A stretch of DNA of 17,892 nucleotides, from the NCBI GenBank assembly GCA_013166835.1, contig JABLTI010000056.1, positions 1 to 17,892 of the forward strand, given 5' to 3'. How positions within the stretch are numbered: position 1 is the stretch's first letter; every line of letters starts with the position of its first letter. Under the pieces are notes generated by a model that searched no databases, had not been told where the DNA came from, and worked only from the letters and a program-made list of their open reading frames with translations. Below are positions 2 through 12,283 of this stretch, piece after piece. The position numbers were made by a program, and so were the translations under genes. Source of the stretch: Promethearchaeati archaeon (GTDB lineage: Archaea > Asgardarchaeota > Heimdallarchaeia > JABLTI01).

Positions 2-811
2 GAGCTCACACCTAATGGTGGAACCGAACCTTGGGGTGATGCTTTATACTTGGCAAATACTTGGGATTGGCGAGATGAAGTTCCAAAACTCCTCATCATT
101 GTTGGAGATGAAGATTGTGATCCCGGCATGGTAGTAGGAGTTGGAAGTTCAGAAACCTATTACAATGGAACACAATTATTAAATGTTGTAACAAACTTGA
201 AGGAGAAAGGTGTCAAGATAAATTCCGTCATAACCGGGATAAGTGGAATTGTTGAAAATCAATTTAATTGGATAGCAGACTATACTGGAGGAGAATGTGT
301 TAACTTAGAAGAATTACAATCACTCCCTGAACCAATTGATTTACCAGAACTCATTGAGACTTGGTCTTTGTCATTGACTCGAGAGTTTTTCGTCAATCTT
401 TATGCAAATGTCACTTGGATTGAATTAGATGATGATACAAATCCATCCTGGGATACTCAAGTTTCTATGTATATAATTATAGATTTGGCACCCCCCTCAA
501 TCCAAGTCTCGTATATTATAACTGAAGAATCAGTTAATGATTTCACTTTAGATTTGACGATTACACCAAGAGATCCTTCAGGAATTCTCTCAGCAAGCCT
601 GTATTGGACAGATGATGATCTAAATACCCCTCCGGAACCAACCTGGCATTTCGTTCCCTTAACGACCAAAATTGGTGATTCTTATGTCGAAGCATTTACT
701 GGTTTAATATCAGGACAAAATTTCTCATTTTATATCTCAGCATTGGATACTATGAGTAATCTAGGAATTACAGACATCTATAAGATCCAAAGCCGTTCGG
801 AACAGCAGTAG
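2..811 (+). CDS. vWA-domain surface protein, N-terminal part (5'-truncated by window edge; probably frameshifted into the next ORF)
   Basis: Frame is open from base 2 and reads ELTPNGGTEPWGDALYLANTWDWRDEVPKLLIIVGDED...LKEKGVKINSV...IADYTGG, typical of the second half of a vWA/MIDAS domain. It is followed by an acidic beta-rich Ig-like segment (DLAPPSI...DPSGILSASLYW...FYISALD). The last residues (KIQSRSEQQ) look like out-of-frame run-off. Confidence 0.8.
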   Translation, partial: ELTPNGGTEPWGDALYLANTWDWRDEVPKLLIIVGDEDCDPGMVVGVGSSETYYNGTQLLNVVTNLKEKGVKINSVITGISGIVENQFNWIADYTGGECVNLEELQSLPEPIDLPELIETWSLSLTREFFVNLYANVTWIELDDDTNPSWDTQVSMYIIIDLAPPSIQVSYIITEESVNDFTLDLTITPRDPSGILSASLYWTDDDLNTPPEPTWHFVPLTTKIGDSYVEAFTGLISGQNFSFYISALDTMSNLGITDIYKIQSRSEQQ

Positions 812-858
812 AATTCCTATTAATAAGTGATAATTCTAATAAAACCATTAGTTTTGAC

Positions 859-1488
859 TTGGATACTCAAACGATTGGTTATTTATGGATAACATCTGAG
901 CAAACTTTGACATTTGAATTCCTTCCATTGGTAGACTTTACTGCATTATTAGTCCACCAAGTAGGGAATTACTCAATTTATCAAATTACAGCATTAAGTA
1001 CTAACAAAATAGTATCCGTAAAATTCTATGGCGATACTAGCAGTTCTGCAATCGAAGTACAATGGGATTATGTTCATGTTGTTGCTCGAGCAGATATTAA
1101 TCATATTCAATGGACTATTAATGAAGAAATAGCAACTATTCTTATACAATCTGAAGTAACAGATTCAGAAGGGGGATTTCTATCTGTAATAATGTATGAT
1201 AGTCAATTGATTGTGAGAGTTCATATTTTTGACTCAACATGGACCAAAATTGGTATAGCCACCGCAGCAGAAGCCATTGCATTGGATACTGGTTCGTATT
1301 ACTTCTGGGTTGAAACAATCTTGCGAACAGGCAGATTCTCGCTATATATTGGTAGCACTCCGCGAACAACAGATGATCCATATCAAACAGCTTACATATC
1401 AGGACCATCATTTCTCACAATTATAGCACTATTCTCATTATCATTAGTAATAATGACTTTGCTCTCATGGTACAGAAGGAGGAAATGA
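859..1488 (+). CDS. C-terminal part of the vWA surface protein: beta-rich ectodomain plus C-terminal membrane anchor
   Basis: This frame is open from 784 (DPKPFGTAVEFLLISDNSNKTISFDLDTQ), overlapping the end of the upstream ORF. It has no signal peptide or obvious RBS of its own, and ends in GPSF + hydrophobic helix (LTIIALFSLSLVIMTLLSWY) + RRRK. Confidence 0.7.
   Translation: MDTQTIGYLWITSEQTLTFEFLPLVDFTALLVHQVGNYSIYQITALSTNKIVSVKFYGDTSSSAIEVQWDYVHVVARADINHIQWTINEEIATILIQSEVTDSEGGFLSVIMYDSQLIVRVHIFDSTWTKIGIATAAEAIALDTGSYYFWVETILRTGRFSLYIGSTPRTTDDPYQTAYISGPSFLTIIALFSLSLVIMTLLSWYRRRK
1477..1482 (+). promoter_or_regulatory. Shine-Dalgarno site for the 1490 TTG start (translational coupling)
   Basis: AGGAGG lies 7 nt upstream of TTG at 1490, inside the RRRK codons of the upstream gene, whose TGA ends at 1488. 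Confidence 0.65.
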
Positions 1489-1489
1489 T

Positions 1490-4400
1490 TTGAGGAAGAA
1501 ATTCTTTACTTATGTTATTATCTCAAGTGTGCTTATTGTTTCCATCCTTATCTCAGCATTTGCTGTTAATTTATCGAGAACTAGAGAAATCTTATCTGAA
1601 CCAGAATTTGTGGAGGATTATTCATACCTTCTATATGATAACACTCAATATGATTTTAACAATGACAAAATAGTCAAGATTGATTTTAATACTTCATATA
1701 ATTTTATTGAAGTAATCAATTTGGACCCAGCTCAAAGTTTCGAAGGTGGAATTGCATCAATTGGAAGCATTGAAAATGCCACAAATATGGAACATGGAGT
1801 TGTTGAATTATTTACCTTTACAAAAAACTTGGACGTAATTAGTTACCAGAATACTGCTTCTTATGTTGATACAACTGCATACAATAAAACAAAATACTTG
1901 ACCGGAAAAGCAATTGATAACCGTTTTGATGGTGAAATAGGAAATCCAATGATTGCTTTACTAAAAGAAATACCGCTTAATGACACACATTGGATTGATT
2001 TTCTCGAGATAAATTCCAACAGCCTAGATTTCAATTATACTTATTCAATACCTAAACCTCATTTCGAGGAAATATCTGATTTTGAAATCATAGACGTAGA
2101 TAGTGATGGCAAATATGAGTTATTTGTTCTCGGTAGAAATACCACCAATCCAACAAATTATTCCTTAGCTGAATACAGTTATAATTCGTCAGCTAAAATC
2201 TATAATCTTACCAACACTTACATTTGGAATGGTACAAACCAAAACTTGATTGAGATGAGTGTGATTGCAGAAGCTGCCAATGTTCATTTCATCATCGCAG
2301 GTATAGATTCTTCTTCTTTGGAATCCTTTACACAAGTAATCTCAATTACTCGAGGTAGTACTCGCAGTTTCAGTCTAACAGGATTAGAATACTATTCCTT
2401 TGGTGCAGATACTTTCAGAGTTTATGGAATGAAATTGTATGATACTGGTGCTGCAAACTCTCGAGGTGTAGCCTTATTCGGTTCTTACAGTGTAGGTGTT
2501 TCTGATACCTATCCATTTTGTCTTAATATTGTAGATATTGTAAATCCAATAATTGCTCCAGATTTCATAAGTTTGAGCTATAACCCAAGTTGGTCATTTG
2601 ATGGTTTAATGGTGGACATAGATTACGATGGGATTGATGAGATAATTCAAACAACCTATGATTTAGTTGGGACAATAAAGAGTGATTATGTGGTCATGAC
2701 GAGTTCTGGATTAACAGAGGTTAATAGTGATACTACTGATCTCTACCAAATAAGATCAAGTGCTAATTTGGGTTTATCCGAGTTCCAGATATCCTCCTGG
2801 ATTGGTAAAAATGACTTGGATAATTTTGCAATTGAGTTCTATTATCCTCATCATGTTTCTTATCAGTTATTTGGTAATGCTGAAGTATTAACTCAATATG
2901 AAGATAATCATTTTTACTTAACAACTACCAACCTGGCAGGGAATTCTCAATCAAGATTGGATTTAGAGATTCATGTTGGTTTGTTTTCGGATCCACTGGT
3001 AGATAGGCAACTGACATCAACTCCTGGTAATTTTACATATTATGCCGTTGAAATAGTTCCCCCAGAAATAAATGAAGAAATTATCCTAAATATTACTAAG
3101 GGAACAGTCAAGTTGATCAAAGATGAAATACCAATAAACATTGAATATCCGCTAAACGCTTTGGTTTTAACTCCTCCAGGTTCTGTTCAGATACGAAATG
3201 CTCCTATGAAAACACAAACCTATGAGGTATCAATAGAAAATACCCTTTCACAAGAGATCATTGTAACATTTGAAATTAGTGGTTCAGTATCAAATTATTC
3301 ATTTATTAATCAAATTAACCTTACAGTTGGTGAATCAGTATCTATACATTTAGATTTCGTTTTCTACGGTTCAATTCCAGAAGCCAAATACGAAGAAACT
3401 ATTACCATTACACTAACAACTCCTGCCGGTATCCATAAATTCGAATCAACAATACTTGTAACAAATCTCTTCCATGTGACAGTCAATGATTTGTTTGTGA
3501 TTTTTGGAATTATTGCAGTTCTAGTTGTAATAATCTACATTGGATTAGCAATGATGATTTTACGAAGAACAGAAGAGGCATTTGATAAACACTTTACAAC
3601 AGAAGAACCAGTTAGACTGGACTTTAAGATTTTCAAGAAGAAAGCACTCAGTAATCTAATACAGAAATACTCTCTGGAAAGGAATTGGAAAGCAGGGATA
3701 AACATGGCCAAAGAATACCAGCCAAAATATGTCTCGCATTTCCATAAATACAAAGTGAAGGAGCAATTGATTTCTGGTCAAAAATTGATGGATCAAGGCA
3801 AATTTGATGATGGATTATCTTATTGGCAAGAAGCAAGAGACTCTCTAGAAGTGATTGGACAACATGAATGGATAGACATGTTGACCTGGTTAATAGACCC
3901 ACTTCAAAGAATCGTAGAAATTAGAGCAATGAAAGGAACTGAAAAAGCAGCGGCCTTAGAAAAAGAATTCCAGAATCTAAACAGTATGAAAGATCAGGAA
4001 TTCGTGATACTCGAAACAAAAATTAACATACCATTATACCTTGTTGCTGAGGAATTGGGAATAGCTCTAAAGGATGCAAATGAACTGCAAACCTCCCTCA
4101 ATTACTTACAATTAGCCTATCAAGGAGCCCCTGAGAAATTCAAAAACAGAATCGTAACTGAGATAACTAGCTTGATTAGCCTAGGTGTTACCCCTACAGA
4201 GTTTGCAATGCCGATAGATCACGAAGCTATAAGGGAGAGAATAGAAAAGAGAGTCGTGAGATGCTTTTCATGTGGAGAAGCAAGGACAAATATTAACGAG
4301 GTTTGCTCGAATTGTGGTATTGATACTGTTCTCTGTTCTGTGTGTAAACTACCAATTAGTTTCGGTTCAGAACCTCTAGAATGTTATCACTGTCAGAACG

Positions 4401-4510
4401 TCGCTCACAAAGAGCATTTGCTTGAGTGGGTGAAAGTGAAAGGGATTTGTCCTGTTTGTCAACAAAAGCTTGTTGCTGATAAGCTCACCATCGCAGAGGA
4501 AAAGGAATAG
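1490..4510 (+). CDS. Single-pass membrane receptor-like protein with FG-GAP/VCBS-like ectodomain and cytoplasmic zinc finger + RING-like domain (putative transmembrane E3 ligase)
   Basis: N-terminal signal/TM (MRKKFFTYVIISSVLIVSILISAFA); more than ten N-x-S/T sequons; DxDxDG Ca-binding loops DVDSDGKYEL (aa202) and DIDYDGIDEI (aa376); Ig-like segment at about aa560-660; TM aa668-691 followed by RR; helical TPR-like region; C925-x2-C-x10-C-x2-C finger; then C949-x2-C-x12-C-x2-C-x4-H-x2-H-x3-W-x6-C-P-x-C. Confidence 0.85.
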   Translation: MRKKFFTYVIISSVLIVSILISAFAVNLSRTREILSEPEFVEDYSYLLYDNTQYDFNNDKIVKIDFNTSYNFIEVINLDPAQSFEGGIASIGSIENATNMEHGVVELFTFTKNLDVISYQNTASYVDTTAYNKTKYLTGKAIDNRFDGEIGNPMIALLKEIPLNDTHWIDFLEINSNSLDFNYTYSIPKPHFEEISDFEIIDVDSDGKYELFVLGRNTTNPTNYSLAEYSYNSSAKIYNLTNTYIWNGTNQNLIEMSVIAEAANVHFIIAGIDSSSLESFTQVISITRGSTRSFSLTGLEYYSFGADTFRVYGMKLYDTGAANSRGVALFGSYSVGVSDTYPFCLNIVDIVNPIIAPDFISLSYNPSWSFDGLMVDIDYDGIDEIIQTTYDLVGTIKSDYVVMTSSGLTEVNSDTTDLYQIRSSANLGLSEFQISSWIGKNDLDNFAIEFYYPHHVSYQLFGNAEVLTQYEDNHFYLTTTNLAGNSQSRLDLEIHVGLFSDPLVDRQLTSTPGNFTYYAVEIVPPEINEEIILNITKGTVKLIKDEIPINIEYPLNALVLTPPGSVQIRNAPMKTQTYEVSIENTLSQEIIVTFEISGSVSNYSFINQINLTVGESVSIHLDFVFYGSIPEAKYEETITITLTTPAGIHKFESTILVTNLFHVTVNDLFVIFGIIAVLVVIIYIGLAMMILRRTEEAFDKHFTTEEPVRLDFKIFKKKALSNLIQKYSLERNWKAGINMAKEYQPKYVSHFHKYKVKEQLISGQKLMDQGKFDDGLSYWQEARDSLEVIGQHEWIDMLTWLIDPLQRIVEIRAMKGTEKAAALEKEFQNLNSMKDQEFVILETKINIPLYLVAEELGIALKDANELQTSLNYLQLAYQGAPEKFKNRIVTEITSLISLGVTPTEFAMPIDHEAIRERIEKRVVRCFSCGEARTNINEVCSNCGIDTVLCSVCKLPISFGSEPLECYHCQNVAHKEHLLEWVKVKGICPVCQQKLVADKLTIAEEKE

Positions 4511-5903: not shown

Positions 5904-6956
5904 ATGAGTGAAGACAAGCTTTCTGCTTTAAAAAATTTGATTGATACTCCCAAGGATTTGCACAAGTTGAAGATCTATGAGGGGAAATTAAATCAAGCAT
6001 GTACTTTTCTTCTCTTTGATAGTCGGAAAATTGTGATTAATTCTGAAGCATCTAGTAAATCTATAGAAGAAGCTGCTCGTTTAATTCCACAAATAAGAAC
6101 CCGGGTGGAATCTCTCATTGATAGAGCAAGAACACAAGATCTCAGGATAAGACCAGGAACCCCTGAGAAAATACAAAAACTAATAGCTAATAATAGTTTG
6201 CTCTTTGATTTCATCATTTTCAGTCGTGGTTGGGATCTAAAGGAGGAACTAAAGGAACTGGATTCATTACTTGTTTTAGGAGAGGTTGATAAGATAAAAG
6301 ACCATGTAAAAAAAGTATTAGAGCACATTCAAACGATAGACGAATTATTCGCACAAAAAGATCATGCTAAAACTAATATTCAATCCTCTGAAGATGTTGC
6401 CGCAATTTTGTTGGAGAGATATAATAAAGAAATGGCCATTGCTGAACAAGCTGGAGCTTTGAAAGGCATTCTAAAGCTTGACAAACCAAAATTCATTGGA
6501 AAAAGCAAATATTATGATCAACTTGGAAATTTCATTTTGAAAATCGCAATGACTTACGAATTAGAATCCAATGACACTCCAATAGCGATTAGAGCAATAA
6601 ATGCGATTCTAAATAGAGAATATCCTCGAGTAAAAGCTGATCTAAAAGACATAGTTAAAGCGGTTGAGATTCTTGATGAAAATGGCTTACTTATTTTAAA
6701 GCAAGATCATGAAGGATTGTATTGGATTCAGTTAAGTCCATCTGAAAGTGAAGCGAATATTGTCCTAAAAATGGCAGAAGCAAAAGGGTATCTTACATTA
6801 GAAGAAGTTATAATGGAAACAAATTGGTCTATTGAGAAGGCAACAGAAGAATTAGAGAAATTCGTGAAAGCAGGTTGTGCAATTAAAGATGCTAGCTATT
6901 CTTCAGGAACCAAGTATTATTTTCCTGGCTTAAGTGAGGATGATTCAGAGACCTAG
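5904..6956 (+). CDS. ESCRT-II Vps22/Vps36 (EAP30/SNF8)-like tandem winged-helix protein with N-terminal helical extension
   Basis: C-terminal ~145 aa (YYDQLGNFILKI...DLKDIVKAVEILDENG...WIQLSP...IVLKMAEAKGYLTLEEVIMETNWSIEKATEELEKFVKAGCAIKD...YYFPGL) parallel the eukaryotic Vps22 pattern as I recall it (FYYELG..I / DD..RAI..L / VLQLAE..GYVT..E....L.W..ERA...L..L...G.A..D / YW.P.L). Confidence 0.82.
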   Translation: MSEDKLSALKNLIDTPKDLHKLKIYEGKLNQACTFLLFDSRKIVINSEASSKSIEEAARLIPQIRTRVESLIDRARTQDLRIRPGTPEKIQKLIANNSLLFDFIIFSRGWDLKEELKELDSLLVLGEVDKIKDHVKKVLEHIQTIDELFAQKDHAKTNIQSSEDVAAILLERYNKEMAIAEQAGALKGILKLDKPKFIGKSKYYDQLGNFILKIAMTYELESNDTPIAIRAINAILNREYPRVKADLKDIVKAVEILDENGLLILKQDHEGLYWIQLSPSESEANIVLKMAEAKGYLTLEEVIMETNWSIEKATEELEKFVKAGCAIKDASYSSGTKYYFPGLSEDDSET

Positions 6957-11824: not shown

Positions 11825-12283
11825 CTATCTTCTGCGACCAGCAATTTGTGCAACACAGAAGAGAACAAAAAATAAAACTCTAAGAATTAAGTAAATACTC
11901 CACCCTATATAAAAAAACCACTCTAGAGGATGCTTAGCAGAACGTTTTCTTTGAGGTGGTTGATACCATTTCCTTTCTCCATCAGATGATGTTGTATAAT
12001 AGCTGCCAGATGAAGAAGTTCTTTCCTCAGAGGTTTCTGGGGGAGAATAAGCAGAAGAGTAACTTGAAGCAGCTGCTGCTATACTAGTGCCACAGAAACT
12101 ACAGAATTTATTGCTGAGGACATTACTAGCTTTGCAATTCGGACATGCAACTTCACCAGAAGAAGTTTTCAGAACAGGATACATTTTTCTGGTAGAAGCT
12201 TTACTAATAGGGGTTCCACAAAAAGGACAAAAAACATCTTCTTTCTTAATAGATTCTCCACAATTAGGACAAGAACTCGACAT
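11825..12283 (-). CDS. Double zinc-ribbon, tail-anchored membrane protein
   Basis: Two ribbons, CPNC-x10-CPFC and CPNC-x10-CSFC, then a Ser/Tyr-rich linker, a C-terminal hydrophobic helix and RRR. AGGAG lies upstream. Confidence 0.85.
   Translation of the reverse strand: MSSSCPNCGESIKKEDVFCPFCGTPISKASTRKMYPVLKTSSGEVACPNCKASNVLSNKFCSFCGTSIAAAASSYSSAYSPPETSEERTSSSGSYYTTSSDGERKWYQPPQRKRSAKHPLEWFFYIGWSIYLILRVLFFVLFCVAQIAGRRR

Follow-up and report, generated by a model that had tools for sequence, protein, structure and literature searches.

RING ligases and an E1/E2/E3 ubiquitination cascade are already accepted among the 'eukaryotic signature' features of Asgard archaea. To our knowledge, a receptor-like layout of ectodomain, transmembrane (TM) helix and RING had otherwise been described for animal ligases, ZNRF3 and RNF43 among them. 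Bacterial LapB, which has an N-terminal membrane anchor, cytoplasmic TPRs and a C-terminal, rubredoxin-like Cys4 zinc domain, contains neither a RING nor an ectodomain and acts with FtsH. A Helarchaeial E1/E2/RING E3 cascade, from a gene cluster of the type considered below, is reported to ubiquitinate UEV-Vps23 in vitro (10.1101/2023.07.25.550441); the RING assayed there may belong to another family. RINGs of the SEA complex are reported to form heterodimers and to 'clearly play a structural role' (PMC9646525), and those of IFT121 and IFT122 bind IFT43 and TULP3 (10.1101/2022.08.09.503213). A 2026 preprint names 'RING-type E3 ligases' among Asgard-eukaryote α-solenoid structure clusters and gives no detail (PMC13734099). 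Our literature search returned nothing joining Asgard, GATOR2 and RING, and only unrelated results for Asgard with WDR59; ESP tables and bioRxiv supplements may already list the family described here.

The gene lies in a window of 17,892 nt (the whole stretch of DNA that was analysed) on contig JABLTI010000056.1 of a Heimdall-group Asgard archaeon (Promethearchaeati archaeon, GCA_013166835.1), and the archaeal host proposed by an earlier sequence-only reading is a member of the Heimdallarchaeota. Its TTG start is located immediately 3' of the stop codon of the upstream gene, and its product comprises, in this order, an anchor, an ectodomain, a TM, a helical solenoid, a zinc ribbon and a RING (Table 1). 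A regular-expression check of the translation found, at aa 925–990, exactly the motif string that had been read before: C-x2-C-x10-C-x2-C, six residues, then C-x2-C-x12-C-x2-C-x4-H-x2-H-LLEW-x6-CPVC. An alignment of 17 orthologs, only 30–85% identical overall, shows no variation at any of the 12 Cys/His ligands or at W980 and P988; because of this invariance and of the large family found by the profile (see below), the motif is regarded as real and not as a chance pattern.

Table 1. Positions of the gene, its encoded parts and its neighbours in the window.
Feature	Position (nt)	Strand	Basis or description
3' part of upstream partner gene	2..1488	+	~710-aa secreted VWA-domain protein
Whole gene, 1006 aa	1490..4510	+	Translation; 20 full-length relatives; alignment of orthologs
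N-terminal hydrophobic segment, aa ~6–27 (signal peptide or signal anchor)	1505..1570	+	Hydropathy; conserved in ortholog alignment
Ectodomain, aa ~28–667	1571..3490	+	Sequons, Cys count, Pfam and Atlas searches
Transmembrane helix, aa 668–691, then RR	3491..3562	+	Hydropathy maximum 3.18
Cytoplasmic TPR-like α-solenoid, aa ~712–897	3623..4180	+	AlphaFold2 model m522849c1073d; Foldseek
C4 zinc ribbon, C925-x2-C928-x10-C939-x2-C942	4262..4315	+	Invariant in orthologs; aligns with first finger of WDR59, MIOS
C4H2C2 RING finger, C949, C952, C965, C968, H973, H976, C987, C990	4334..4459	+	Conservation; RING/U-box fold matches
Conserved downstream neighbour, 350 aa, separate transcription unit	5904..6956	+	EAP30 (ESCRT-II Vps22/36-like) C-terminal half

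Nucleotide 3491, the first position given in the sequence-only reading, corresponds to codon 668, with which the strongest hydrophobic segment opens (Kyte-Doolittle 19-mer mean 3.18). The N-terminal segment is preceded by MRKK, and the TM is immediately followed by RR. In the stretch between the two hydrophobic segments there are 14 N-x-S/T sequons, against a mean of 9.0 and a 97.5th percentile of 14 after shuffling, and the tail contains none (shuffle mean 1.1); a single Cys is present in the 638-aa ectodomain and 10 are present in the tail, every one of them a motif ligand. The ectodomain-TM-RING layout agrees with the earlier description. From the charged residues at the hydrophobic segments, the sequons and the Cys we infer that the large ectodomain would lie outside the cell and the solenoid and fingers inside. 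Its similarity to ZNRF3 and RNF43 (PA-TM-RING ligases) is an analogy of layout only, because the ectodomain lacks a PA domain; the RING also differs from those of eukaryotic RING-H2 and PA-TM-RING ligases in lying behind TPRs and a zinc ribbon. The ectodomain carries DxDxDG-type motifs, and in all 17 orthologs it matched no Pfam domain of any kind (E ≤ 0.05). An Atlas feature search returned FG-GAP/CARDB clusters for it at a score of 0.86; since this is below the mark of 0.9, an FG-GAP-like propeller with CARDB/Ig-like domains is possibly present and is taken as a lead only.

The helical repeats claimed for the tail are backed by an AlphaFold2 model of aa 701–1006 (mean pLDDT 81.1), in which helices extend over model residues 12–197 and the zinc module comes after them. 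The solenoid is predicted to contain about ten helices and one short β-hairpin (block pLDDT mostly 82–96); past it lie a low-confidence linker and one further helix (aa 911–919), giving about 11 TPR-like helices in all. With the whole tail (TPR and fingers) as query, Foldseek returned the TPR-plus-zinc tails of IFT-A, LapB, GATOR2 and CHIP, with IFT-A first at 1.7e-6 and LapB (8.1e-4) and GATOR2 after it. Because the TM-scores are low (0.16–0.29) and the rmsd values high (14–29 Å), the likeness of the solenoid to IFT-A and GATOR2 extends only to 'TPR-like repeats then zinc fingers'.

The two-finger module was modelled with a pLDDT of 87.2. In a PDB-wide VIA search, the second finger of this predicted model matched RING/U-box E3 domains, and the top matches were all of this kind (Z 5.2–7.6), including 3lrq_A (Z 7.6, rmsd 2.2, 61 aligned), the Pex RING 7t92_C (Z 7.4), the Prp19 U-box (Z 7.4, rmsd 1.5, 53 residues) and RNF4 (Z 6.6); Foldseek aligned 3lrq_A at an rmsd of 1.2 over 58 residues. 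The finger is a C4H2C2 variant of the RING, with C-x2-C at ligands 3–4 and four residues ahead of ligand 5. The spacing C-x2-C-x4-H-x2-(C/H) over ligands 3 to 6 is that of PHD and C4HC3 fingers, and its presence here, with weak sub-threshold matches to TackOD1 (E 0.0015–0.02) and a single weak sequence match to a KMT2D PHD chain (E 0.0079), would suit a domain of the PHD, FYVE or TackOD1 kind that reads or passes on a signal by binding a peptide, lipid or nucleic acid, with the TPRs signalling without an E2. In the window protein the ligands form a C4H2C2 pattern, with 10 residues separating ligand 6 from ligand 7. Such a reader module is very improbable: the TackOD1 scores are 14.7–18.5 bits against a cut-off of 32, and the model places a central helix containing LLEW ahead of CPxC, which is RING-like. 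Moreover, PHD and FYVE domains are absent from the 50 matches listed in each VIA list, all of which are RING/U-box domains or the IFT144 tail, so that for the predicted model a RING rather than a PHD fold, as the sequence-only reading had proposed, is favoured.

The module is widespread. A profile of its 82 aa, run against 1.84 billion cluster representatives, matched 5138 of them at E ≤ 1e-3 and 1072 at E ≤ 1e-10, and the module was detected in 292 of 400 Asgard phylum genomes; 18 ORFs carry it in the source genome, some of these paralogs lacking the site-1 ligands. Among 141 new representatives, it is located at the C-terminus in 121, and at least one crude TM segment was found in 84. Outward-facing partner domains in the family include NosD/β-helix, DUF2341, LVIVD and TSP3. 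Being mostly C-terminal, often associated with a TM and combined with outward-facing domains, the module has the pattern of a cytoplasmic output domain, and membrane proteins of Asgard archaea commonly carry it as their C-terminal 'output'. A soluble protocoatomer-like form (WD40, TPR and ZnR-RING) was also considered and rejected; the conserved class of ~690 aa consists of winged-helix/PCI-like repeats and ZnR-RING, and WD40 was found in none of the 49 long module representatives scanned (E ≤ 1e-5).

When the RING is scored alone, its sequence resembles active RING-H2 ligases more than GATOR2: its best profile matches were RNF126 (3.8e-8), Arkadia (6e-7), RNF24 (6.2e-7) and EL5 (7.4e-7), and ZNRF3 was matched at 3.6e-4. 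It differs from the RING-H2 ligases in having C-x2-C and not C-x-H at ligands 3–4, and a His as ligand 6. A single-sequence phmmer search against the PDB was too weak to decide (RNF126, 0.024; WDR24/WDR59, 1.4–4.2). At E ≤ 0.1 every one of 19 module sequences is matched by the Pfam family zf-RING_2 (PF13639), the best E-value being 2.2e-8, with the window protein itself remaining under the cut-off of 27.3 bits (15.7 bits whole, 20.9–21.4 bits for the tail alone). Prok-RING_1 (PF14446) matches 16 of 19 other family members (best 3.5e-10), and the module of the window protein has no listed match to it at E ≤ 0.1.

A related RING is found in a ubiquitin gene cluster. In a Baldrarchaeota locus (L028), an 86-aa stand-alone RING is encoded between a UEV/Vps23_core gene and the genes for ubiquitin, E2 and E1 (ThiF), with Vps28 and EAP30 genes adjoining in the same cluster. 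This RING shares with that of the window protein the signature C-x2-C...C-x2-C-x4-H-x2-H-LLEW-x6-CPxC (HREHLLEW...CPxC in both), and BLASTP aligned the two at 45% identity (E 6.5e-12); the RING of the window protein and that of the ubiquitin operon are accordingly assigned by sequence to the same family. They differ in setting: the L028 protein is soluble, lacks the zinc ribbon, adjoins the ubiquitin, E2 and E1 genes and passes the Pfam cut-offs of Prok-RING_1 (36.7 bits; cut-off 29.1) and zf-RING_2 (28.4 bits; cut-off 27.3), whereas the window protein, at 1006 aa, is membrane-bound, has TPRs and an extra C4 ribbon, scores below the cut-offs and is encoded apart from such genes. Orthologs of all three genes for which the sequence-only reading had suggested a genome check are present in the source genome, outside the window, namely E1 (C207; 46% identical to the E1 of L028, E 7e-109), E2 (C197; 59%, with the HPN motif and catalytic Cys) and ubiquitin (C194; 53%), and UEV-Vps23, Vps28 and EAP30 are located on C110. 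The genome also has a stand-alone RING (C200).

Complex prediction with the organism's own E2 weakly favours E2 binding by the module. The pair scored 0.41 (best control 0.11), with at least 97% of contacts agreeing between runs and a partner pLDDT of at least 86. Of 157 solved complexes, 116 reach the mark applied, as do 2 of 215 mismatched pairs; a score of 0.60 or below was obtained for just 18 of the 157 and for both passing mismatches. Because RING-E2 complexes have already been solved, a pass may reflect mere likeness to them. At the level of residues, V951, W980 and P988 occupy the usual E2-contact positions, and 19 diverse family members keep V/I between ligands 1 and 2, as well as the Trp and Pro, the last two being invariant. 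The Trp and CP-x-C features that had been read as E2 contacts of RING ligases are indeed retained; WDR59 and MIOS keep them too, and the E2-contact Trp, Pro and hydrophobic residue therefore cannot separate a ligase from a scaffold. In many active RINGs the last Cys is followed by a 'linchpin' Arg; this position is occupied by Gln in most of the orthologs and by Lys in three.

The suggested resemblance to WDR59 and GATOR2 proved to be real. The ZnR+RING profile matched WDR59 (residues 901–962) and MIOS at E 6.8e-5 and 1.7e-4, in ligand-for-ligand alignments that cover both fingers, the H-x2-H-xxEW stretch and the CP; with this ZnR+RING-only profile, GATOR2 chains rank above all ligases. GATOR2/SEACAT proteins (WDR59, WDR24 and MIOS; Sea2/3/4) share with the window protein a zinc finger, six residues and a C4H2C2 RING, with spacings identical through C7, placed after an α-solenoid (Foldseek E 3e-4 to 1.6e-3). 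They differ from it in their cytosolic β-propeller and Seh1/Sec13 partners, which are missing from the window protein, in lacking a TM and ectodomain, and in the predicted finger-to-finger orientation (rmsd ~7 Å, TMq ~0.5); the WDR59 alignment ends at CP, whereas the last ligand pair here is CPxC. Only the solenoid-ZnF-RING half is common to both, and the full protocoatomer architecture is not present. The Pfam family zinc_ribbon_16 (PF17034) matches 14 of 19 family members at E ≤ 0.1 (best 0.0021), the window protein scoring 18.2 bits against a cut-off of 27.

Taken as one rigid body, the 82-aa module superposes best on the C-terminal ZF-RING of IFT144/WDR19, likewise preceded by TPRs (8fh3_C, chain residues 1249–1329; VIA Z 8.9, rmsd 2.9 Å, 81 of 82 residues, 20% identity, with a predicted query). 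In Foldseek, IFT144-type C-termini reached TMq values of 0.74 (9a2d_F) and 0.71 (8bbg_A), with GATOR2 and SEA chains immediately below IFT-A. IFT144 differs in being a soluble, protocoatomer-type WD40-TPR ciliary protein whose RING is described as an interaction domain, and sequence support for IFT-A is weak (WDR19, E 4.5e-3; Zf_2nd_IFT121 in 5 of 19 members). The similarity to HOPS/CORVET that had also been suggested was not borne out: no such subunit occurs among the matches listed by the profile, Foldseek or VIA searches, IFT144 being the best whole-module match instead, and Vps8/Vps41 RING profiles match only the multi-RING proteins P0113 and P0150.

These likenesses sustain the main rival to a ligase, in which zinc ribbon and RING together mediate protein-protein contacts without catalysis, like those of GATOR2/SEA, IFT-A and HOPS. 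Through this module the tails of membrane proteins would dimerise or be docked into an assembly beneath the membrane; the TPR solenoid would offer an additional contact surface, and no ubiquitin would be transferred. The scaffold C-termini that dominate the whole-module and whole-tail matches, the structural pairing of SEA RINGs and the binding of IFT43 and TULP3 by IFT-A RINGs would all fit; with 18 module ORFs in the genome, heterodimer pairs would therefore exist, and the loss of site-1 ligands in some paralogs suits a structural over a catalytic role. Against it stand the family shared with the RING of Asgard Ub-E2-E1 operons, the closeness of the RING alone to active RING-H2 ligases and the presence of E1, E2 and ubiquitin in the genome, and we consider this alternative somewhat unlikely. 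The two functions are not exclusive, because dimerising RINGs are often active ligases too.

We therefore favour, at a probability of about 0.5, a receptor-like, membrane-anchored RING E3 ligase. What counts against it is that the best whole-module matches of the predicted structure are non-catalytic scaffolds (IFT144/WDR19 and GATOR2/SEA), that the orthologs have Gln or Lys in place of the linchpin Arg, that the window protein scores below the Pfam cut-offs, and that ubiquitin, E1 and E2 genes are absent from the window. Such a ligase would be a single-pass (or N-anchored bitopic) membrane protein with a large glycosylatable ectodomain facing outward and, inside the cell, a TPR-like solenoid bearing a rigid two-finger module, the C4 ribbon packed on the C4H2C2 RING. 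The RING would bring the ubiquitin-charged E2 of the same organism to the membrane, and the pair could ubiquitinate the protein itself or nearby membrane proteins, one candidate being the VWA surface protein encoded in the same operon, which would extend into the cytoplasm by only a few Lys/Arg-rich residues. The TPR part may select partners or substrates; the ectodomain, perhaps with the VWA protein or through a ligand, may set the timing of ubiquitination, and marked proteins could pass to the Asgard UEV-Vps23/ESCRT machinery.

New elements are a large family with a RING, usually behind a zinc ribbon, as the cytoplasmic C-terminus of receptor-like membrane proteins, the match, in sequence spacing and three-dimensional structure, of the two-finger module to the C-termini of GATOR2/SEA and IFT-A subunits, and a concrete operon of a VWA surface protein and a RING receptor near an ESCRT-II-like gene. 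An active ligase would make ubiquitin-dependent control of surface proteins older than eukaryotes, and a scaffold would be a candidate precursor of the protocoatomer tail. A more far-reaching proposal, doubtful when its parts are taken jointly, is that the Asgard ZnR+RING was the ancestor of the ZnF-RING tails capping the α-solenoids of protocoatomer-derived complexes (GATOR2/SEA, IFT-A and perhaps HOPS/CORVET), that an Asgard family of ubiquitin ligases, already placed behind TPR/HEAT solenoids, gave rise to these scaffold tails, and that this family provided dozens of surface receptors in each Asgard genome with their cytoplasmic output. If true, it would imply prokaryotic transmembrane signalling by ubiquitination, feeding ESCRT.

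The upstream VWA protein ends in a TM and a short tail rich in Lys and Arg, and its gene is split in the window by a 16-nt gap at ~781. Contigs from the metatranscriptome run X20 were not counted as expression, because they come from a relative, may reflect DNA carry-over and show no transcript ends. They are 90–99% alike to this locus (two of six at 95–99%, four at 90–95%) and cover gene parts 1345–2233 and 3716–4078, the boundary to the upstream gene being bridged by one contig of 906 nt.

The gene of the receptor-like RING protein, here called the RING receptor (see the table below), lies on contig C142, which is the window and one of the 260 contigs of a 3.56-Mb assembly with an estimated completeness of 85%. 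Hydropathy analysis of its product detected two hydrophobic segments, at aa ~6-27 and aa 668-691, the latter scoring highest; nucleotide 3491 corresponds to codon 668, so that the stretch 3491..4510 comprises the TM helix plus all residues C-terminal of it. Basic residues are located ahead of the first segment and behind the second. Between the two segments, 14 N-x-S/T sequons were found (mean after shuffling, 9.0; 97.5th percentile, 14), and the tail contains none. Only one Cys is present in the ectodomain versus 10 in the tail, all 10 being motif ligands. Based on the flanking basic residues and the sequon and Cys distributions, the ectodomain is predicted to be outside and the tail inside the cell. 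The motif string given in the sequence-only reading (C-x2-C-x10-C-x2-C, six residues, C-x2-C-x12-C-x2-C-x4-H-x2-H-LLEW-x6-CPVC) was found exactly, at aa 925-990, within a C-terminal zinc ribbon-plus-RING (ZnR-RING) module.

In a word-indexed search with tail residues 690-1006, 21 of 2639 candidates reached E ≤ 1e-3: 20 complete or nearly complete relatives with tail identities of 45-94%, and a Lokiarchaeial DUF2341 protein that has only the C-terminal end in common. Source labels of the relatives, where given, were Heimdallarchaeota, 'Asgard group', Thorarchaeota, and Bathyarchaeia (one MAG). All 12 Cys/His, W980, and P988 are invariant in 17 aligned relatives (30-85% overall identity), as are the strings CSVCKLPIS and AH-x-EHL-x-EW-x-KVKG-x-CP-x-C.

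Pfam by itself does not classify the RING receptor sequence, which falls below the cut-offs of zf-RING_2 (15.7-21.4 versus 27.3 bits), zinc_ribbon_16 (17.7-18.2 versus 27 bits), and TackOD1 (14.7-18.5 versus 32 bits). Over 19 module sequences, zf-RING_2 matched 19, Prok-RING_1 16 (best 3.5e-10), zinc_ribbon_16 14 (best 0.0021), and Zf_2nd_IFT121 5. When a module profile was compared with PDB sequences, RING-H2 ligases ranked first, in the RING part only (RNF126, 3.8e-8; Arkadia, 6e-7; RNF24; EL5), followed by WDR59 (3.6e-6), WDR24-labelled chains (6.1e-6), and MIOS (4.8e-5), which span both fingers (profile 4-69), and further down by listerin (1e-3), WDR19/IFT144 (4.5e-3), and Sea4 (0.013). 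With a profile of 12 ribbon-bearing copies trimmed at the last Cys, the top seven matches were all GATOR2 chains and RNF126 was behind at 2e-3. The alignments to WDR59 901-962 and MIOS match up all ligands of the two fingers along with the six-residue linker, H-x2-H, xxEW/xxSW, and CP, recovering ligand for ligand the WDR59-like finger-then-RING spacing proposed in the sequence-only reading. These E-values are not strong, and scores of Cys-rich profiles tend to be inflated; it is the identical spacings that carry the weight of this likeness.

The predicted structure of the tail (aa 701-1006, 8-row alignment, mean pLDDT 81.1) shows helices over model residues 12-197, consistent with the helical repeats proposed for this region, with the zinc module behind a linker of low confidence. 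Foldseek searches of PDB with this model returned IFT-A chains first (9a2d_F, 1.7e-6; 8bbg_A, 3.3e-5), followed by LapB (8.1e-4), GATOR2 chains (from 2.5e-3), SEA chains, and CHIP, but TM-scores were low in all cases (0.16-0.29), indicating likeness of layout only. The module-only model (19-row alignment, pLDDT 87.2, pTM 0.72) matched 9a2d_F (4.1e-5, TMq 0.74, rmsd 2.7, 83 columns), 8bbg_A and 8fh3_C (WDR19; TMq 0.71), GATOR2 and SEA chains (3e-4 to 1.6e-3, TMq ~0.5, rmsd ~7), and isolated RING/U-box domains (3lrq_A, rmsd 1.2 over 58). When 48,161 chains were searched by VIA independently of Foldseek, the highest ranks went exclusively to RING/U-box domains (best Z 7.6, below 8 throughout), with WDR59 at Z 6.0; among Foldseek's 1000 best, VIA placed WDR19 8fh3_C first (Z 8.9, rmsd 2.9, 81/82 residues, chain 1249-1329). 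These matches assign the modelled second finger to the RING fold, and taken as one unit the finger pair resembles the ZF-RING termini of IFT144 and of GATOR2 subunits. A module of this kind would be expected to bind three zinc ions and to show cross-brace geometry.

Components of a ubiquitin system are encoded in the same genome. A Baldrarchaeota ubiquitin-ESCRT cluster (L028) contains, in order, EAP30, a 93-aa ORF, Vps28, UEV/Vps23_core, a DUF1664-like protein, an 86-aa RING of the module family, ubiquitin, E2, a ThiF-type E1, and Yip1. The presence of ubiquitin, E1, and E2, put forward as a check on the ligase reading, was borne out by orthologs on contigs C194 (ubiquitin, 53% identity), C207 (E1, 756-1784 on the minus strand, 46% identity, 7e-109), and C197 (E2, 31601-32065, 59% identity, HPN motif plus Cys); UEV-Vps23, Vps28, and EAP30 are all on C110, and a 139-aa stand-alone RING is on C200 (20380-20799). 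A Helarchaeial E1/E2/RING E3 cascade, whose RING is a candidate member of the module family, is reported to ubiquitinate UEV-Vps23 in vitro (10.1101/2023.07.25.550441). Complex prediction for E2 and the module lent weak support (0.41 versus 0.11 for the best control), which may only reflect likeness to RING-E2 complexes already solved.

The initial observation was confirmed and its interpretation stands on every computable point. The most likely function of the RING receptor is that of a membrane-anchored, receptor-like RING E3 ligase, to which we assign a probability of roughly one half. A serious but less probable rival is that the tail serves as a RING scaffold without catalytic activity, like those in GATOR2 and IFT-A; the C-terminal module is common to these families and the RING receptor, which nevertheless falls outside both, being below the Pfam cut-offs and without a cytosolic propeller. 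The ligase and scaffold readings are compatible rather than exclusive. Asgard RING ligases are already known. In the literature searched, which comprised main texts in open access, there appears to be no published account of the receptor layout, of how large the ZnR-RING output family is, or of the protocoatomer-tail likeness.

The start codon of the RING receptor is one base past the stop of the upstream gene. In each of the eight ortholog loci with upstream DNA, this upstream gene forms one uninterrupted ORF of roughly 710-740 codons. The encoded protein carries a signal peptide and a VWA domain (E 1.5e-9 to 3.2e-5) and ends in a TM segment followed by a Lys/Arg-rich tail of 7-15 residues. 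The window copy is broken at ~781, where 16 nt are missing relative to the 85% identical L004 relative; an insertion of 16 nt behind position 781 was found in contigs of all three DNA runs compared (three studies). Given these 16 nt, the frameshift probably stems from misassembly or a rare variant, and the gene is probably intact in the population. The VWA surface protein is paired in an operon with the RING receptor. DxDxDG motifs occur in the ectodomain of the latter, for which the Atlas gave an FG-GAP/CARDB-like lead; if this ectodomain fold holds up, the two would form an integrin-like VWA-plus-propeller pairing.

Downstream are a CYTH gene on the opposite strand and an EAP30-like gene, a second EAP30 paralog beside the ESCRT-cluster copy on C110. 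The EAP30-like protein is 35% identical to L028 EAP30 across its C-terminal half, which is preceded by an N-terminal part of ~195 aa. Both genes are conserved in ortholog loci extending far enough. Since all of the genomes compared are related, conserved gene order around the RING receptor argues only weakly for a functional link. A double zinc-ribbon (DZR) gene is also conserved in the neighbourhood.

Features of the locus of the putative RING receptor and of other module-bearing genes
Feature	Contig or locus	Position	Strand	Remark
RING receptor	window	1490..4510	+	1006 aa
VWA gene, part	window	2-1488		ORFs 2..811 and 859..1488
VWA gene, intact	L004	2529-4658
EAP30-like gene	window	5904-6956		350 aa; C-terminal half EAP30 (ESCRT-II Vps22/36-like), E 3.7e-8
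DZR gene	window	11825-12283	-	152 aa; weak Prok-RING_1 match, E 2.9e-4
RING-only paralog	C97	2186-2914
RING-only paralog	C138	5196-6143
RING-only paralog	C121	1124-1885
RING-only paralog	C80	33407-34466
RING-only paralog	C19	4613-5146
Tandem RING genes	C208	58725-60291		three genes
ZnR-RING gene	L019	2563-2802	-
ZnR-RING gene	L019	7989-8228	+
ZnR-RING gene	L019	8901-9140	+
ZnR-RING copy	L021	11295-11543	-	in-frame stop
Repeat ZnR-RING gene	L032 (G015)	759-2726
Repeat ZnR-RING gene	L033 (G056)	526-2673

Scanning a single genome from each species turned up 25 module loci. Ten (L004-L013) carry RING receptor orthologs or their fragments, and the other 15, from hosts including Heimdallarchaeota, Freyarchaeota, Baldrarchaeota, Odinarchaeota, and Promethearchaeota, carry different genes with likeness limited to aa ~920-1000. 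Judged from their translations, these genes include soluble ~400-aa, TPR-/HEAT-like, single-pass with a large ectodomain, multi-pass, and 86-aa stand-alone RING proteins. The zinc ribbon is present in Heimdall and Freya copies and absent from Baldr, Odin, and Prometh copies. Across an alignment of 19 diverse copies, E979, W980, and P988 never vary, nor does any of the eight RING ligands. Against 1.84 billion cluster representatives, the module profile matched 5138 at E ≤ 1e-3 (1072 at E ≤ 1e-10). Among 141 new proteins in the best 150 of these 5138, 122 showed the strict ribbon-plus-RING pattern, 10 RING alone, and 9 neither; the module is ≤25 residues from the C-terminus in 121, and at least one crude TM segment was found in 84. 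Pfam partner domains in the 49 representatives of ≥400 aa (out of 142) were NosD/beta-helix, DUF2341, LVIVD, TSP3, LRR, HEAT, TPR, and PCI; 24 of the 49 had no Pfam family at E ≤ 1e-5, and three are multi-RING-H2 proteins scoring through repetition.

Module matches at E ≤ 1e-6 were found in 292 of 400 genomes of the phylum, including 11/11 of the window genome's own family and only 3/89 of three other families together; with ≤13 candidates scored per genome, a count of 13 means at least 13. The window's genome contains 18 module-bearing ORFs (E ≤ 1e-3), of which six have a ribbon (one weak), and site-1 ligands are lost in several RING-only copies. Besides the RING receptor, ZnR-RING tails are encoded on contigs C60, C185, and C215 of this genome. 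Five such paralogs have an altered first zinc site (e.g. C-x2-S; Q/K/Y at His positions) and retain the second site and Trp; judged by these residues, they may be U-box-like degenerate RINGs. On C208, three small tandem genes each have a C-terminal RING of the family. Three ZnR-RING genes lie within 7 kb of a Freyarchaeota chromosome (L019), and one of them is probably inactive because its LLEW helix is replaced by HLPKGKKEKK. The L021 copy has an in-frame stop at the invariant Trp codon (HLQE*VKTQG), which could mean that the gene is a pseudogene, that the stop is recoded, or that it stems from a sequencing error. Finally, L032 and L033 represent a conserved soluble class of ~650-720 aa with many winged-helix/PCI-like repeats and a C-terminal ZnR-RING, common across a sister family within the same taxonomic class.
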